The notes under the pieces: model-generated
Told to the model about the DNA's origin: nothing
What the model saw: the letters and a program-made list of their open reading frames with translations, nothing else
The model's database searches: none
In this document: positions 51-5,092 of the stretch, in pieces
How the letters are laid out: each line of letters opens with the position of its first letter
How positions within the stretch are numbered: the first letter of the stretch is position 1
Virus record (IMG/VR): IMGVR_UViG_3300018477_000019
Coordinates: 1-5,092 of that record
DNA length: 5,092 nucleotides
Reading direction: 5' to 3' (one strand)
Source of the DNA: a virus
Lineage: Duplodnaviria; Heunggongvirae; Uroviricota; Caudoviricetes
Made by a program: the position numbers and the translations under genes

Positions 51-1026
51 CTTTCAGAACCGTCAGAACGGACCATTCAGCCTCGACACTATCGACCGAG
101 TTCAAAACGCTATCGCAAATCACGTAGTCGTAACGCCCTCGCGTTTTTAAGTCGTCCACCAGCGTATCAATCATTCGGTTTGTTGCAGCCCTATCCAGAG
201 TGTTTCCAGCGCCCTTACGGCGGAAAAGCTCGAGATCATGCAGGTTATATCCCTTTGCCCTGAGCATTCGCGCGTAGTCTCCCTGCCCCGAACCAAAATC
301 AATTCCTCTTGGCGTCTTGGCAATGATCGGGAGGATCAACGACTCATACAGATTTGATTTCAGGCTGCCACCATTACGCAACCGCATAAGCTGCGCATAC
401 GTCTGGATGTATGTTGTTTTCTCCAGATGAGAATACTCAAATACACCATAAGTTTTATTCAGATAACTTTGGTATTTTTCCTTCTCAACATCAGGGATCA
501 CAAACACCGTTAGCGGTGTGCGCGTCATTTTCGCTGCTAATGCATACTGAGCACAGTGAATAACCTCACCAGACTGAGTAGCAACACAACCACCCCACGG
601 ACCATACTTGATAACCAGTTCCGCTATGTTCTTTCGAACATATGCCATTTTCGCGCGCATATTGCCTGAGATCTGGCTTGCCGATACCTGAACAAAACCA
701 TGCTTATCTTCCAGACCGGACACCCTGCAACGCTCATCTCCGCTATCAAAATCCGTTCCGTTATGCAGTTGGTTAAACCGTACTTCGTCGTATACCGTCG
801 TTTCACAGGGCAACACATACACCGCAGCACGCGTTATTCCCAATTTACGTAGCGCCTTCGTCCTTTGGTGTCCCGCCACCAGCAAATCGCCGCGCACTAT
901 CAATGGCTTCACAAGCCCCAGCTCCCTGACGCTTTCCGCCAGCCTCGCAAGATCATCCTCACCGATAAAACGCGGGTTATATTCCGCGCCGCGTAGGTGC
1001 GTTATGTCGTAATTGAGGTGAAGCAT
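28..1026 (-). CDS. ParB/Srx-like N-terminal domain fused to a class I SAM-dependent methyltransferase-like domain; 3' end truncated/chimeric with adapter
   Basis: Minus-strand ORF (track 28..1032). N-terminal ParB-type motif (…LIVRGDLLVAGHQRTKALRKLGI…); C-terminal region has a Rossmann SAM-binding motif I (IDFGSGQGDY) and a downstream YDYVICDSVL segment. No (D/N)PP(Y/F/W) motif in the retained part. Likely start is ATG at 1026-1024, preceded by GGAGG about 8 nt upstream and overlapping the upstream stop (TGATG); an in-frame GTG at 1032 is the alternative. The last ~7 codons and the stop at 28-30 lie inside adapter sequence, so the true C-terminus is unknown. Confidence 0.8.
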   Translation of the reverse strand: MLHLNYDITHLRGAEYNPRFIGEDDLARLAESVRELGLVKPLIVRGDLLVAGHQRTKALRKLGITRAAVYVLPCETTVYDEVRFNQLHNGTDFDSGDERCRVSGLEDKHGFVQVSASQISGNMRAKMAYVRKNIAELVIKYGPWGGCVATQSGEVIHCAQYALAAKMTRTPLTVFVIPDVEKEKYQSYLNKTYGVFEYSHLEKTTYIQTYAQLMRLRNGGSLKSNLYESLILPIIAKTPRGIDFGSGQGDYARMLRAKGYNLHDLELFRRKGAGNTLDRAATNRMIDTLVDDLKTRGRYDYVICDSVLNSVDSVEAEWSVLTVLKEIGRAHV

Positions 1027-1649
1027 CAGCACACCTCCCCAGCCAGCAATGCGGATACAAATCCGATATAGCTGCCATTATCATCAACATAACGAGACAC
1101 CGCGCAGTCAAAACGATCCGCTTCCTCATCCGTTGCCGGGATTTTATGACCTCCAAATGACAGGTACTGAACTTTTACGCCTGATTTGGCCTCATCCTTC
1201 TCAAATGGGATATCCATACCTTCTGTGTCATCGTAGACCGCCACACTCAATAAGTTATCCAGTTCGCGCTGAGTAAAACCAATTGAGTCCAGAGCAAAAT
1301 CATCGGCCGCAAGATCTGCAAGCTCCGCGCTTAACAACTCTTCATCCCAACCAGCATTCAGCGGAATACGGTTGTCGGCCAGACGATATGCCTTCTTCTG
1401 ATTCTCCGTTAGCCCAGCCAGAACAATGCAGGGAACATCATCCATCCCCAACTGAGTGGCCGCAGCAATTCGACCATGACCAGCAATTACAACGTTGTTC
1501 TCGTCTATCAGGATCGGATTAGTCCATCCGTACTCCTGTATGCTGGCAACAATCTGATCTACCTGCTCCACGGAGTGTGTGCGAGCGTTCTTTTCATAAC
1601 CAATCAACACAGAAAGTGGTAAAGAAACCACATTAAGTTGTTTTGTCAT
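1026..1649 (-). CDS. ParB-like nuclease (ParB N-terminal/Srx) domain protein, 207 aa
   Basis: Minus-strand ORF with ATG at 1649-1647 and TGA at 1028-1026. Contains a ParB N-terminal domain signature (…NPILIDENNVVIAGHGRIAAATQLGMDDVPCIVL…) and an acidic C-terminal half. Its stop overlaps the start of the downstream ParB-methyltransferase gene (TGATG), indicating translational coupling. Confidence 0.8.
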   Translation of the reverse strand: MTKQLNVVSLPLSVLIGYEKNARTHSVEQVDQIVASIQEYGWTNPILIDENNVVIAGHGRIAAATQLGMDDVPCIVLAGLTENQKKAYRLADNRIPLNAGWDEELLSAELADLAADDFALDSIGFTQRELDNLLSVAVYDDTEGMDIPFEKDEAKSGVKVQYLSFGGHKIPATDEEADRFDCAVSRYVDDNGSYIGFVSALLAGEVC

Positions 1650-1792
1650 GCCGTTTATCCGCTAAAATCCCCTCGCTTGTGCAAGCAAGTGGGCCTCGGT
1701 TTGTATCCACGGCACCCTGTGGGTATGAATGACTGTCGTCAGGTCGCAACTGACGGCGGTCGCCCACCTTCCAGTAATAAAAAAGCCACCAG

Positions 1793-1822
1793 CATTAACT
1801 CCACAATGAGCTGGAGTTAATG
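1793..1822 (-). repeat. Perfect 11-bp inverted repeat with 8-nt spacer in the intergenic region downstream of the Tfa-like gene; candidate terminator hairpin or operator
   Basis: CATTAACTCCA (1793-1803) / TGGAGTTAATG (1812-1822) are exact reverse complements with spacer caatgagc. On the minus-strand transcript the hairpin is followed about 8 nt later by UUUUUUAUUA. It lies about 60 nt after the Tfa-like stop (1884) and about 145 nt before the ParB start (1649). Confidence 0.35.
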
Positions 1823-1883
1823 AGGCAGCTTTGGTTTGCGCATTATCGCAGCCCCTGATAAGCACAAGAGCTGCTGTAATGCG

Positions 1884-2597
1884 TTACTCTGGTATCAAAC
1901 AGATGTGGCCGTTATTTACCTCAATGCGAGAGTATCTCGGCTTACCATCCACGATTCCGGTAATGACAAGTTCGCCATCAGGCGACCATTCTTCTTTGTC
2001 GTCTTCAAGTACCGCGCCTTCTGGCAGATCAATACAGGCAAAAACAGGACAGCCAGGATGACGTTTATCCTCCATCGCAATCAGCATCGACTCACCGAAC
2101 CACTCTGTAGTAGCACGGCCATCAGCCGCCTGATAGTGAATCAGATACTGGTTTTCGCCATTTGCATACTGAGCACGGGCTTGAACTTCTCCCCATTCGT
2201 CACTGATACGCATTGTTACCAGTTGGGATAATTCAAACTTAAACGGAACAGACTCTGCACCAATAGATATCGGTGAGTTTTCTCGCTGCTCTGGACCTTC
2301 ACGCTTCACAATTTGAACATCTTTGACGAGCCAATCACCTGTGTTATCTACTTTTCGATACTCATCGGTATCAGGTAACTCAATAACACTCATCCCATCC
2401 GGGCAAAGCAACGATACATCTTTCGAAACACTGCGGATAATGCCGTTATTGTCATACATCATCTTTAAAGTGTGAGGCTGAAATTTCTTCTGCTCCTCAT
2501 ACCAATTTCTTCCGTCTTCAGTAAAAAGCGGTAGCACATCTGGATGTTTGCCGCGGGGATCAATAAGCGGCGCACTGATATTTTTTAAATGCATCAT
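1884..2597 (-). CDS. Tail fibre assembly (Tfa/gpG-like) N-terminal domain protein with a divergent, non-canonical C-terminal region (237 aa)
   Basis: Minus-strand ORF with tandem ATG at 2597/2594 and TAA at 1886-1884. The N-terminal ~105 aa (MMHLKNI…EDGRNWYEEQKKFQPHTLKMMYDNNGII…DTDEYRKVDNTGDWLVKDVQIVKR) matches, from memory, the conserved N-terminal region of enterobacterial prophage tail fibre assembly proteins. The C-terminal ~130 aa lacks the usual Tfa C-terminal W..Y..L..RVD-type motif. No tail fibre gene lies upstream. Confidence 0.78.
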   Translation of the reverse strand: MMHLKNISAPLIDPRGKHPDVLPLFTEDGRNWYEEQKKFQPHTLKMMYDNNGIIRSVSKDVSLLCPDGMSVIELPDTDEYRKVDNTGDWLVKDVQIVKREGPEQRENSPISIGAESVPFKFELSQLVTMRISDEWGEVQARAQYANGENQYLIHYQAADGRATTEWFGESMLIAMEDKRHPGCPVFACIDLPEGAVLEDDKEEWSPDGELVITGIVDGKPRYSRIEVNNGHICLIPE

Positions 2598-2613
2598 ATA
2601 AATAACCCTACAT

Positions 2614-2778
2614 CTATCTCATTGACTTGAATGAAACGCACCCTGACCGCAATTGCTCCCGCTTACGCCGAAAAGCTCTCTGCGCCACTAAGATGCGCCA
2701 CAGGACACCAGCAATAACCACCAGCGAGATACAAAAACACACGGCCACAACCATCAGAAAAATGCCAACACCATTCAT
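2614..2778 (-). CDS. Small membrane peptide, 54 aa (one predicted TM helix plus basic C-terminal tail); not in the supplied ORF track
   Basis: Manual translation of the minus strand from ATG 2778-2776 to TAG 2616-2614 gives MNGVGIFLMVVAVCFCISLVVIAGVLWRILVAQRAFRRKREQLRSGCVSFKSMR. The ATG overlaps the TGA of the upstream 68-aa ORF (ATGA), and the stop lies 16 nt before the Tfa-like start. An alternative in-frame ATG at 2790 would add MDSF. Weak Shine-Dalgarno only. Confidence 0.4.
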   Translation of the reverse strand: MNGVGIFLMVVAVCFCISLVVIAGVLWRILVAQRAFRRKREQLRSGCVSFKSMR

Positions 2779-2981
2779 GAAACTATCCATTCTTCAATGA
2801 ATATCTCCAGTAATGTCAAGAGATACGCCGTCCCCAGCGCGGTTCCTACCGATATAGCTAAAACAAACCTCAAAGATAACGAGGTGTCTTTCGCTTTTCT
2901 CCAGACGTAAGCGCCAGCCAGAAATACCAACAAATCTCTTATTGGAAGCGGAAACCAGAACAAATCACTCGGCAAGTCCAC
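2775..2981 (-). CDS. Small hydrophobic protein, 68 aa, two predicted TM segments; GTG start
   Basis: Minus-strand ORF starting at GTG (2981-2979), 2 nt after the TAA of the 151-aa gene, with a purine-rich GGAAGGA about 7 nt upstream; stop TGA at 2777-2775. Product MDLPSDLFWFPLPIRDLLVFLAGAYVWRKAKDTSLSLRFVLAISVGTALGTAYLLTLLEIFIEEWIVS has two hydrophobic stretches and no internal Met. Tight packing with flanking genes supports it, but the non-ATG start lowers confidence. Confidence 0.4.
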   Translation of the reverse strand: MDLPSDLFWFPLPIRDLLVFLAGAYVWRKAKDTSLSLRFVLAISVGTALGTAYLLTLLEIFIEEWIVS

Positions 2982-2983
2982 GG

Positions 2984-3439
2984 TTATATCCTTCCATTCA
3001 TTTTTATCGGATGACCAGATAGCCTTACGCAGTTGAGCTGTAAAGCTCCGGTATCAACTAAATAATCAACTAACATGATTAGAGATTCATATTCAGCCAG
3101 ATAGCTAACCTGACGCATTCGACCGCCGTTGTTCTCCAGAATGTCGGCCACCTTTGCAGCCAACTCGCTTAGACAGGAGAACTTATTCCCATATATCGTT
3201 TTATACTCGCGCTTCTGGCATTCTTCGGCTTGCGGCTGGTTATCGAGAGCTATCAGCGACCGATAACTATCAAGGAAGTCCACAATCTCATTCAGGCACT
3301 CTTTGGCTGCCTCATCGTGACTTTTTCCGTATGCTTCATGGAGGACTTTCATCCTCATCATTGCTCCGTCACACATAATCGAAAGCGCGTAAAGCACATC
3401 ACTAATCGCCATTTCTTTTTTGGTGCTTGTCGAAGGCAT
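2984..3439 (-). CDS. Hypothetical protein, 151 aa, probably cytoplasmic and helical; no recognised family
   Basis: Minus-strand ORF with ATG at 3439-3437 preceded by a strong Shine-Dalgarno (AAAGGAGAAC-ATG); stop TAA at 2986-2984. It sits immediately downstream of an intrinsic terminator, so it opens a transcription unit or is reached by read-through. No motif I could assign. Confidence 0.7.
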   Translation of the reverse strand: MPSTSTKKEMAISDVLYALSIMCDGAMMRMKVLHEAYGKSHDEAAKECLNEIVDFLDSYRSLIALDNQPQAEECQKREYKTIYGNKFSCLSELAAKVADILENNGGRMRQVSYLAEYESLIMLVDYLVDTGALQLNCVRLSGHPIKMNGRI

Positions 3440-3464
3440 CCCATGTTCTCCTTTGTCTGGATGT

Positions 3465-3490
3465 AAAAAAGCCCCGGCAATTGCCGAGGC
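3465..3490 (-). terminator. Rho-independent terminator after the 89/65-aa gene pair
   Basis: Minus-strand RNA GCCUCGGC-AAUU-GCCGGGGC followed by UUUUUU: an 8-bp GC-rich stem (7 Watson-Crick pairs plus one G-U), 4-nt loop and 6-U tract, beginning 24 nt after the TAA (3516-3514) of the 65-aa gene. Confidence 0.65.
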
Positions 3491-3513
3491 TCGTTGTTCG
3501 TTATCGTTACGGT

Positions 3514-3711
3514 TTAATGCTCGCGTCGTCCGGCGACAACTTCGGATTTGTATTTCAGGTCGCCCAGCAAGAATTGCAGTTTAAGCATCTTTGCCGCCGT
3601 GTAGTTCCCTGATTCCACAACCTCTTTCATGAGGTCATAAACGGCCGCTACATCATCAGCCAGGAACTCTTTGCGTTGCTGCTCAGTCGCACGTTTGAAG
3701 GAAATACGCAT
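3514..3711 (-). CDS. Hypothetical small protein, 65 aa (66 aa if started at GTG 3714)
   Basis: Minus-strand ORF with ATG at 3711-3709 overlapping the TGA of the upstream 89-aa gene by 1 nt (TGATG); stop TAA at 3516-3514, followed by the intrinsic terminator. Product MRISFKRATEQQRKEFLADDVAAVYDLMKEVVESGNYTAAKMLKLQFLLGDLKYKSEVVAGRREH looks helical and charged; no family assigned. Confidence 0.62.
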   Translation of the reverse strand: MRISFKRATEQQRKEFLADDVAAVYDLMKEVVESGNYTAAKMLKLQFLLGDLKYKSEVVAGRREH

Positions 3712-3980
3712 CACTCATCATCTCCTGCCGCACATACAACCTCACAAAAAACATCAGCGGAATGTTTCTCCTTGAACGAATGACGCTCAAAACCGCACTC
3801 AATATCAGGCGCAAAAACATCCACCACATACGGTCTTTCAGAATGTTTGTTTTCCCAACGATAAACCGTAGTGACGTTGAAATGTTTTAACGCTTCACGG
3901 AACTCAACGCTGCCAGTCAGGTTTTTTGAGGTCAGGTATTGCAGGAGGTTTTTTACTACTTCACGGTCTTGTACTTTCAT
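3711..3980 (-). CDS. Hypothetical small protein, 89 aa, acidic C-terminus
   Basis: Minus-strand ORF with ATG at 3980-3978 preceded by GGAGA about 8 nt upstream; stop TGA at 3713-3711. Product MKVQDREVVKNLLQYLTSKNLTGSVEFREALKHFNV…CAAGDDE. First gene of a two-gene unit with the 65-aa ORF. Confidence 0.7.
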   Translation of the reverse strand: MKVQDREVVKNLLQYLTSKNLTGSVEFREALKHFNVTTVYRWENKHSERPYVVDVFAPDIECGFERHSFKEKHSADVFCEVVCAAGDDE

Positions 3981-4024
3981 CGGGTTATCTCCGGTTTAAC
4001 CAGGGCGGGTATCGCTCGGTTTCG

Positions 4025-4062
4025 GTTATAACCTTAGGAAATTTTTTCCCACCTGTAAAGCA
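4025..4062 (-). promoter_or_regulatory. Candidate sigma70-type promoter for the 89/65-aa operon
   Basis: On the minus strand, TTTACA (plus 4059-4054), a 17-nt spacer, then TAAGGT (plus 4036-4031), about 50 nt upstream of the ATG at 3980 in a 112-bp AT-rich intergenic region. The -10 is a weak match; a consensus TATAAT also occurs within the palindrome at 4081-4092 without a good -35. Sequence inspection only. Confidence 0.25.
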
Positions 4063-4092
4063 CTTTTTATATAAATCTATAATTATATAATT

Positions 4093-4680
4093 CTATGACA
4101 CTTGCCAGAGAGCATCATGCAACTGGATACCTCCGTTGCACTGGTTGCCCCAGCCATGCCAGCCATCAGGTAAATCACCGCGAGCAAACAGCTCAATACG
4201 AGGAACATCACCTAACAGTCTTACCAGCTTGTCACGAACCACATCAGGCTTCCGTGAATGTTCCAGACGAGGCGATGTAAACGACTGAATGATCCCCGCA
4301 TCAAGGCGAGTCGGCAGTTTGCCTTTTACCGCAAACAAGCAATCTTCACTGTTCGCACGAGTCATATGCCCCATCCCCATCACCAGCTTATCTGGCTGTC
4401 GGCTACCACATTTGTTCCATGTGAAGCCCTTCATGGTCATCAGCCTGAATCCCCATGCTTTCACCACCAGCAACGCTTCTTCTGGCTGAGTCGGAACCCA
4501 CCACATGGCCAACAAACACGATTCAGGATTAGCAAGCTGCCAGACAGGAATACGAGCAATCTCCTCAGCTTTCATCGTTGGATACTTAAAACCAGCTCCA
4601 CGATTCCCATCCTTACACTTGTCTTTGTATTCCCAGGGGGGATCTGCATAAATCAGATTAAACAATGCAATTGCCTCCAT
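4093..4680 (-). CDS. MT-A70-family N6-adenine DNA methyltransferase (phage-type orphan Dam-like methylase), 195 aa
   Basis: Minus-strand ORF with ATG at 4680-4678 (GGAGG about 10 nt upstream) and TAG at 4095-4093. N-terminal catalytic DPPW motif (LIYADPPWEY) and downstream EHSRKP and ELFAR segments typical of MT-A70-type adenine methyltransferases. No adjacent restriction endonuclease gene. Confidence 0.88.
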   Translation of the reverse strand: MEAIALFNLIYADPPWEYKDKCKDGNRGAGFKYPTMKAEEIARIPVWQLANPESCLLAMWWVPTQPEEALLVVKAWGFRLMTMKGFTWNKCGSRQPDKLVMGMGHMTRANSEDCLFAVKGKLPTRLDAGIIQSFTSPRLEHSRKPDVVRDKLVRLLGDVPRIELFARGDLPDGWHGWGNQCNGGIQLHDALWQVS

Positions 4681-4988
4681 GTTAGTTGTGCCTCCGGCGC
4701 TTATCTCCGGCAGTCATAACGCTGGCCAGCTCTACAGCAAACACAACGAAAAGGGCACTAACCAGACTGATTAATGCCCTTGCCTGTTGTGTGCCGGATA
4801 TCGCCAGACAACGCTGTTTTGGTAACACGGCTACAGTTCCGCGCCGCTCCAGCTTTTACCCCTTTGCGGATAACAGGCCCTGCCTGTAACTTAGCCCCAC
4901 GTTCGCCCGAAATGCGCACCAGGCACGCATAAAGATGAGCACGAAGGAAGTAACTCCACCGCGCTTATCTTTATGTGTGAGAGTGAAT

Positions 4989-5064
4989 TGGTGGCCCCTA
5001 CCGGATTTGAACCGATGACCGTGCGATTATGAGTCGCCTGCTCTAACCACTGAGCTAAGGGGCC
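4989..5064 (-). tRNA. tRNA with CAU anticodon; acceptor stem and D-arm resemble tRNA-Ile2 (lysidine, ileX-like) rather than tRNA-Met
   Basis: Reverse complement of 4989-5064 is GGCCCCTTAGCTCAGTGGTTAGAGCAGGCGACTCATAATCGCACGGTCATCGGTTCAAATCCGGTAGGGGCCACCA (76 nt). It folds as a cloverleaf: 7-bp acceptor stem, 4-bp D stem, anticodon loop CTCATAA, T stem ATCGG/CCGGT, T loop TTCAAAT, encoded CCA. The 5' ~43 nt match my memory of enterobacterial ileX; the variable loop and T stem differ with compensatory pairing. Confidence 0.85.
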
Positions 5065-5092
5065 ATATTTGATCTGTTTGTCTGATGTGGCG

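Follow-up and report, generated by a model that had tools for sequence, protein, structure and literature searches.

Does the variant tRNA(CAU) gene at the edge of this stretch of viral DNA mark the place where an element entered a host chromosome, or is it a gene of the phage itself? The window, meaning the whole stretch of 5,092 nucleotides that was analyzed, contains a single tRNA gene, 76 nt long and with anticodon CAU (ARAGORN). The Rfam tRNA model RF00005 covers it completely and scores 67 bits, where the gathering score is 29 (E = 1.7e-13); both methods give a canonical cloverleaf, and the CCA end is encoded. The identical 76-nt sequence is annotated as tRNA-Ile on RefSeq plasmids, which is also the PGAP label of the gene. 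An earlier note, made from the letters alone, had proposed two origins: the boundary of an integrative element that replaced the 3' part of a host tRNA gene or, alternatively, a phage-borne tRNA like those of the ileZ type.

The position at the edge is probably explained by the two ends of the window. Its first 50 bases are an Illumina TruSeq indexed adapter, CATACGAGAT-ACATCG-GTGACTGGAGTTCAGACGTGTGCTCTTCCGATCT. They have no counterpart in the plasmid family described below, and every database match begins at base 51; the contig carries adapter contamination at this end. The opposite end, base 5092, falls inside the proximal arm of a 34-nt inverted repeat (I1), which probably caused the assembly to break there. 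With an adapter at its start and an inverted repeat at its end, the window is most likely a complete short-read contig, whose edge has no biological meaning; hence, the tRNA would lie beside an assembly break and not at an element boundary, as had been supposed.

Bases 51-5092 of the window are 99.9% identical to the Escherichia coli plasmid p48 (NZ_CP023368.1), a circular record of 48,774 bp with 71 annotated features. It encodes plasmid functions (an IncFII-type RepA, Pfam PF02387; ParA; a RelE/ParE toxin pair), the regulators XRE and Rha, two holins with a GH108 endolysin, and a complete myovirus set: terminase, portal, protease, capsid, sheath, tube, tape measure, baseplate and tail fibers. 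Furthermore, the Yersinia phages vB_YpM_39, 41 and 44 have near-identical genomes of 49 kb with an identical tRNA. Because of this gene content and of these deposited phage genomes, the element is a phage-plasmid, i.e., a temperate myovirus of ~48 kb kept as a circular plasmid.

Within this genome, the tRNA is located in the middle, 293 bp past the last gene of the lysis cassette (holin/endolysin) and 308 bp ahead of an MT-A70 methylase gene; small ORFs, ParB-like genes and the terminase come after the latter. Phage genes thus lie on either side of it. All of them, lysis cassette included, are on the strand of the tRNA; the genes of the window, described before as transcribed away from the tRNA, are in fact on its strand and downstream of it. 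A truncated tail-fiber-assembly pseudogene (RefSeq) is found between the methylase and ParB-like genes, at ~2310-2594 (-) of the window (L005 20980-21264), and the alignment to related plasmids breaks into two or three pieces near it, indicating a variable spot.

Copies of the tRNA without any difference over the 76 nt are present in 43 PLSDB plasmids and in 52 records of an E. coli genome collection that overlaps with the PLSDB set. E. coli ATCC 25922 carries a member of the family with 48.5 kb. Among the matches listed, nearly all records with the identical tRNA measure 46-52 kb, and the hosts include E. albertii, E. fergusonii and Klebsiella aerogenes. The flanks of this invariant sequence differ by 1-5% among relatives. 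One E. coli plasmid with a 100%-identical tRNA, NZ_AP027678.1, has approximately twice the usual size of the family (87,954 bp), possibly as a cointegrate or through a dimer-like assembly. In the phage-plasmid typing papers, tRNAs are not mentioned and the 48-kb family is not named; the ETEC and Y. pestis HQ103 papers deal with elements other than this phage-plasmid.

An integrative element would be expected to carry an integrase and to leave a repeat of the tRNA segment. The earlier note had remarked that no integrase lies beside the tRNA, which is correct, and had placed a possible one at the far end or outside the window; none is present among the 71 annotated features of the 48.8-kb replicon. 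The only recombinase is a 184-amino-acid Resolvase+HTH_7 protein beside oppositely oriented tail-fiber genes. This serine recombinase lies outside the window, at L005 46269-48447, where it adjoins tail-fiber and tail-fiber-assembly genes, one of them truncated. The locus looks like a host-range inversion switch of the Cin/Gin type, an arrangement that matches the tail-fiber invertases of P1 and Mu.

The window tRNA is also the only tRNA of the whole replicon. A second copy of its 37-nt 3' part does not occur in the 48.8 kb at up to three mismatches, and the longest other match to the tRNA is 11 nt (blastn-short); the predicted direct repeat of the 3' segment is therefore missing from the complete replicon. 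In addition, the 1.3 kb beside the tRNA, with the tRNA itself excluded, was compared with 5,426 complete E. coli genomes. All flank matches with a coverage of at least 79%, among the matches listed, are plasmid records of 46-52 kb, and the chromosomal ones are merely MT-A70 homologues (37% coverage, 76% identity). The att-site reading was dropped, as integrase, direct repeat and chromosomal location were each looked for and not found. On an E. coli K-12-lineage chromosome (L243 8494-11197), the host gene ileY has a recombinase fragment and prophage-like genes such as ypjA and yfjZ/ypjF as neighbors; an island edge is thus a possible location for a chromosomal tRNA-Ile2 gene, in contrast to the tRNA of the window.

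The tRNA itself is indeed a variant. Compared with ileX and ileY, both drawn from an E. coli K-12-lineage chromosome, nucleotides 1-42 are exactly those of ileX, and eight differences follow, at positions 43, 44, 49, 50, 51, 59, 63 and 65. The T stem reads A49-U65, U50.G64, C51-G63, G52-C62 and G53-C61, and a C is present at position 44. Two of the changes are compensatory: pair 49-65 is G-C in ileX and A-U here, and pair 51-63 is U-A in ileX and C-G here. Pair 50-64 changes from C-G to U-G. At the top of the anticodon stem, ileX has G27.U43 where the window tRNA has a G27.A43 mismatch, flagged as non-canonical in the NC line of the Rfam match. ileY differs from the window tRNA at ten positions, with the 6-67 pair in addition to the differences from ileX. 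The description in the earlier note, an ileX-like 5' part followed by a differing 3' part with compensatory pairs, is borne out by these alignments, the 3' part of ileX that it used for comparison was right for the K-12-lineage gene, and the host ileX is not identical over the 76 nt. Its assignment of the differences to the variable loop and T stem needs a correction: the T stem does differ, but position 43 belongs to the anticodon stem, and position 59 of the T loop differs as well.

If the differences were spread evenly, the chance that all eight fall in the last 34 of the 76 positions would be ~0.001. Among the viral contigs that carry the exact 42-nt 5' part of ileX, at least six other 3' halves were found, and in nearly all of them the changes relative to ileX are restricted to the T arm, again with compensatory pairs; this sample, picked for the identical 5' part, reveals free variation of the T arm and not invariance of the 5' part. 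Positions 6 and 26, indeed, vary among the tRNAs in P1 context. The 5' part of the gene carries the elements that fix its identity. We infer that constraint accounts for the clustering better than recombination at an att junction: the 42 nt are probably shared with ileX because the parts with identity elements are constrained.

An anticodon CAU occurs in tRNA-Met as well as in tRNA-Ile2. TilS positively recognizes C4-G69 and C5-G68 of tRNA-Ile2, and TmcA, which acetylates tRNA-Met, needs C27-G43, C30-G40 and G44 (PMC2500205). Both TilS determinants are present in the acceptor stem of the window tRNA, and those of TmcA are all absent (G27.A43, G30-C40, C44). Hence, the tRNA should be lysidinylated at C34, not acetylated, and should read AUA. 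Initiator tRNAs are marked by an unpaired 1-72 and by three G-C pairs at 29-31/39-41; here, G1-C72 is paired, and A31-U39 breaks the run. A73, A37, A38, C29-G41 and U12-A23 are also present, which we take to be further identity elements for IleRS.

The next-best matches, with 72 of the 76 positions identical, are the trnI genes of phages P1, P7, D6, SJ46 and RCS47 and of hundreds of P1-like plasmids. In the P1 record, the gene is annotated as "tRNA-ile2 (CAT) gene; 89 pct identical to ileX". P1 trnI and the window tRNA have A43, C44, A49, C51, G63 and U65 in common, and they differ at positions 6, 26, 50 and 59. Other phage tRNAs match with at most 89.5% identity, vs. 94.7% for P1 trnI. The 3' half was then used as an exact pattern, with Y50 and R59 allowed. 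Among 185,579 species-representative genomes, this signature has one match, a contig 99% identical to P1; a chromosomal donor ileX with this 3' half was not found in that scan. In IMG/VR, the signature occurs in more than 110 contigs, and in all but one of them, the flanks are of P1 type or of the 48-kb family; the flank of the sole exception matches neither.

As far as these sequences tell, the window tRNA belongs to a lineage confined to the P1-like and 48-kb plasmid-prophage families, and none of the species sampled has it as its chromosomal ileX. The tRNA has both marks of the P1 trnI lineage, a 3' half derived relative to enterobacterial ileX and a place on an extrachromosomal plasmid prophage. 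The second origin that had been considered, a phage-borne tRNA encoded by the element, is thereby upheld. Its suggested likeness to ileZ is right as regards the phage origin, yet the closest relative found is P1 trnI, with the same 3' signature, ileZ having been compared by description only. No flank homology to P1 was detected as would indicate a transferred module: p48 and the P1 trnI region are alike over exactly the 76 nt.

In more than 100 P1-like contigs, the tRNA varies mainly at four sites, and the cloverleaf is kept. Sites 6, 26, 50 and 59 are each polymorphic in P1-context contigs of IMG/VR, and one IMG/VR contig of the 48-kb family has the P1-like T26. Behind this polymorphism is either recurrent mutation or an exchange of sequence, by gene conversion, among phage-plasmids in one cell.

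The features around the tRNA are collected in Table 1. A scan of the 600 nt upstream revealed no sigma-70-type promoter, and the terminator scan found no terminator-like site between the lysis genes and the tRNA; as no promoter was found, the extent of the transcription unit is inferred. The terminator-like hairpin, ~208 nt downstream of the tRNA and ~70 nt before the MT-A70 gene, is likely where transcription through the tRNA ends.

Table 1. Features at the tRNA locus, in window coordinates; positions in L005 convert as window x = 23574 - L005 x.
Feature	Window position	Strand	L005 position	Evidence and remarks
MT-A70 family DNA methyltransferase gene	4093..4680	(-)		Pfam PF05063, E = 2.4e-23; RefSeq; first gene downstream of the tRNA
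Terminator-like hairpin, 14 pairs then TTCGTTGTGT	4751..4781	(-)	18793-18823	Terminator scan; seen in the trailer fold
Stable hairpin I2, 25-nt arms	4924..4979	(-)	18595-18650	In the 3' trailer; starts 10 nt after the encoded CCA
tRNA-Ile2 gene, P1 trnI type	4989..5064	(-)		ARAGORN; Rfam; alignments with ileX, ileY and P1 trnI
Inverted repeat I1, 34-nt arms: distal 18 nt of the tRNA-proximal arm	5075..5092	(-)	18417-18450 / 18466-18499	Leader + tRNA fold; L005 positions are those of the two complete arms

Two further, strong hairpins flank the tRNA. The arms of I1 are 85% complementary; the repeat ends 10 nt before G1 of the tRNA, and its remainder lies beyond the window end. It is a possible processing or regulatory hairpin of the tRNA leader. 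Together with I2, it could plausibly provide processing sites on both sides of the tRNA. The trailer (window 4740-4988, minus strand) is strongly structured, with a folding energy of -99.8 kcal/mol (z = -4.6); it may represent a structured RNA that is transcribed together with the tRNA, or may hold only processing and termination signals. Relatives are 95-100% identical at these hairpins, too alike for covariation. No Rfam family exceeds its threshold in leader or trailer: the matches below it are chance ones to miRNA hairpin models, to rydB (27 bits vs. 50) and to a plastid model antisense to the tRNA. An AT-rich palindromic stretch is present just upstream of I1 (L005 18336-18370). The trailer also contains an unannotated 53-codon ORF with a GTG start (window 4758-4919, minus strand), which ends within the terminator hairpin; its product would be rich in Gly, Arg and Lys, and it is probably spurious.

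What such a tRNA might contribute can be read from the codons of the phage-plasmid. AUA makes up 15.5 per 1000 codons in the 66 complete coding sequences of the plasmid (25% of the Ile codons), vs. 2.7 per 1000 (4.5% of the Ile codons) in the 47 coding sequences of a 50-kb E. coli region: ~6 times commoner (Fisher p = 5e-31), relative to a host sample rich in highly expressed genes. Genome-wide, the E. coli value is nearer to 4-5 per 1000. The head and tail genes reach 20.8 per 1000, and the remaining genes of the plasmid 10.3 (p = 1e-6). The G+C content is 44.5% in the plasmid vs. 51.3% in the host sample. The arginine codons AGA and AGG are likewise more frequent, with 9.2 and 6.0 per 1000 vs. 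1.2 and 0.7 in the host sample, and the plasmid encodes no tRNA-Arg that would match them; hence, any compensation of codon usage would be no more than partial. The major capsid gene, moreover, contains no AUA codon at all.

The gene lies inside the genome of a ~48-kb phage-plasmid and belongs to the P1 trnI lineage; from sequence comparison and codon usage, we consider it likely that it is a functional, element-encoded tRNA-Ile2 that raises AUA decoding for the late genes. A supply of AUA-decoding tRNA for late-gene translation, a classic case of codon compensation, appears to be the best-supported function. Transcription of the tRNA would accompany that of the lysis genes or follow it directly, and would stop at the hairpin at 4751-4781. 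The leader would be cut by RNase P, and the encoded CCA end would be trimmed free. Through the acceptor determinants C4-G69 and C5-G68, the host TilS would turn C34 into lysidine; the host IleRS would then charge the tRNA with isoleucine, so that AUA is read. Given that the AUA-reading tRNA of E. coli is scarce and that AUA weighs heaviest in the head and tail genes, an extra gene copy, amplified during phage replication, would raise the decoding capacity while virions are produced.

Other explanations of the gene have to be weighed against this codon supply. The tRNA could serve counter-defense, replacing or outlasting a host tRNA-Ile2 depleted by a tRNA-targeting nuclease of the host or of a competitor, or by host shut-off; in this version, the altered T arm and the 27-43 pair would make it a poor nuclease substrate. 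Phage tRNAs that escape anticodon nucleases are documented (PMC10264068), and the changes at 43, 44 and in the T arm are conserved in two unrelated phage-plasmid families. The documented escape variants, however, change the anticodon loop, whereas the loop (CUCAUAA) and the lower anticodon stem of the window tRNA are those of host ileX. We know of no nuclease that targets tRNA-Ile2, and the high AUA usage is already a sufficient reason for the gene; counter-defense is therefore an unlikely explanation.

That the gene is a neutral passenger, captured once and kept without benefit, or even non-functional from the G27.A43 mismatch, also appears quite unlikely. It is true that no promoter is recognizable within 600 nt upstream, that the top pair of the anticodon stem is non-canonical, and that the plasmid would be present in few copies during lysogeny. 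Against this stand the invariance of the 76 nt in the 43 PLSDB plasmids, in the 52 overlapping E. coli records and in the three phage isolates, next to flanks that differ by 1-5%, and the kept cloverleaf of the P1-like contigs, variable mainly at four sites. The homology between P1 and the 48-kb family, moreover, is confined to exactly the tRNA, which indicates selection on the gene itself.

The same confinement, together with the polymorphism of the four sites in both contexts, leads to another reading, to which we give about as little credence: the P1-type 3' half would be a specific adaptation to phage-plasmids and not drift, or the 76-nt gene would move by gene conversion between co-resident phage-plasmids. 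Such a 3' half might, for example, alter the competition for TilS and TmcA, or resist a tRNA-targeting activity of the host or of a rival.

Very unlikely, in turn, is an elongator tRNA-Met. ARAGORN calls tRNA-Met from the anticodon CAU, and the GenBank records of the Yersinia phages bear this label, but nothing besides the anticodon underlies such labels. In the acceptor stem, C4-G69 and C5-G68 take the place of the U4-A69 and A5-U68 of tRNA-Met, the three determinants that TmcA requires are missing (PMC2500205), nucleotides 1-42 are those of ileX, and PGAP and the P1 annotation both give tRNA-Ile. Least probable of all is that the tRNA is an att junction at an island end, left by an element in host ileX or ileY whose attP-derived copy replaced the 3' part: the eight differences do all come after position 42, some of them as compensatory changes in the T stem, and they cluster with p ~0.001 relative to an even spread, a pattern that tRNA-targeting integrases produce, but the replicon as a whole is a circular plasmid that encodes RepA and ParA but no tyrosine integrase, the tRNA is single-copy (second matches of at most 11 nt) and flanked by phage genes on both sides, no chromosomal copy is among the matches listed for the 5,426 complete E. 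coli genomes, and P1, another plasmid prophage, has the same 3' half.

Dozens of public records already annotate the gene, and its homologue in P1 has been described. Beyond correct annotation, the importance of the locus is small. A phage-plasmid contig will not be mistaken for the border of an island in a chromosome, and the "tRNA-Met" label of the Yersinia phage records is corrected to tRNA-Ile2. The element is one more temperate phage with AT-richer, AUA-rich late genes and a matching rare tRNA. Moreover, two unrelated plasmid-prophage families, the P1-like one and the 48-kb one, carry a single tRNA-Ile2 lineage that is absent from the bacterial chromosomes among 185,579 species genomes.

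Among known tRNAs, host ileX resembles the window tRNA throughout positions 1-42, which comprise the 5' strand of the acceptor stem, the D arm, the anticodon loop and most of the anticodon stem, and both ileX and ileY share the discriminator A73 and the CCA end. They differ from it at 43, 44, in the T stem and at position 59 of the T loop, and they are chromosomal and not plasmid-borne. The tRNA genes that serve as attB of prophages and islands have only a pattern in common with it, in that the 5' part resembles the host gene and the 3' part diverges from it with compensatory pairs; unlike them, the window tRNA comes without integrase, duplicated segment or chromosomal location. Phage-borne tRNAs(CAU) of the Ile2 type are also known from temperate coliphages: lambdoid and Stx prophages carry ileZ together with argN and argO, usually explained by the supply of rare codons. 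The window tRNA, in contrast, has no tRNA-Arg beside it, and a cluster of the ileZ-argN-argO type was rejected, as neither window nor plasmid contains a neighboring tRNA; the other 3' variants in viral contigs are likewise solitary within 600 nt. The nearest system is that of P1. There, trnI lies between tciC and ban, with trnA and trnT 1.5 kb upstream, whereas in the 48-kb element the tRNA is solitary, between lysis cassette and MT-A70 methylase. Both tRNAs have the G27.A43 mismatch, and both reside on a temperate, plasmid-maintained myovirus of Enterobacterales.
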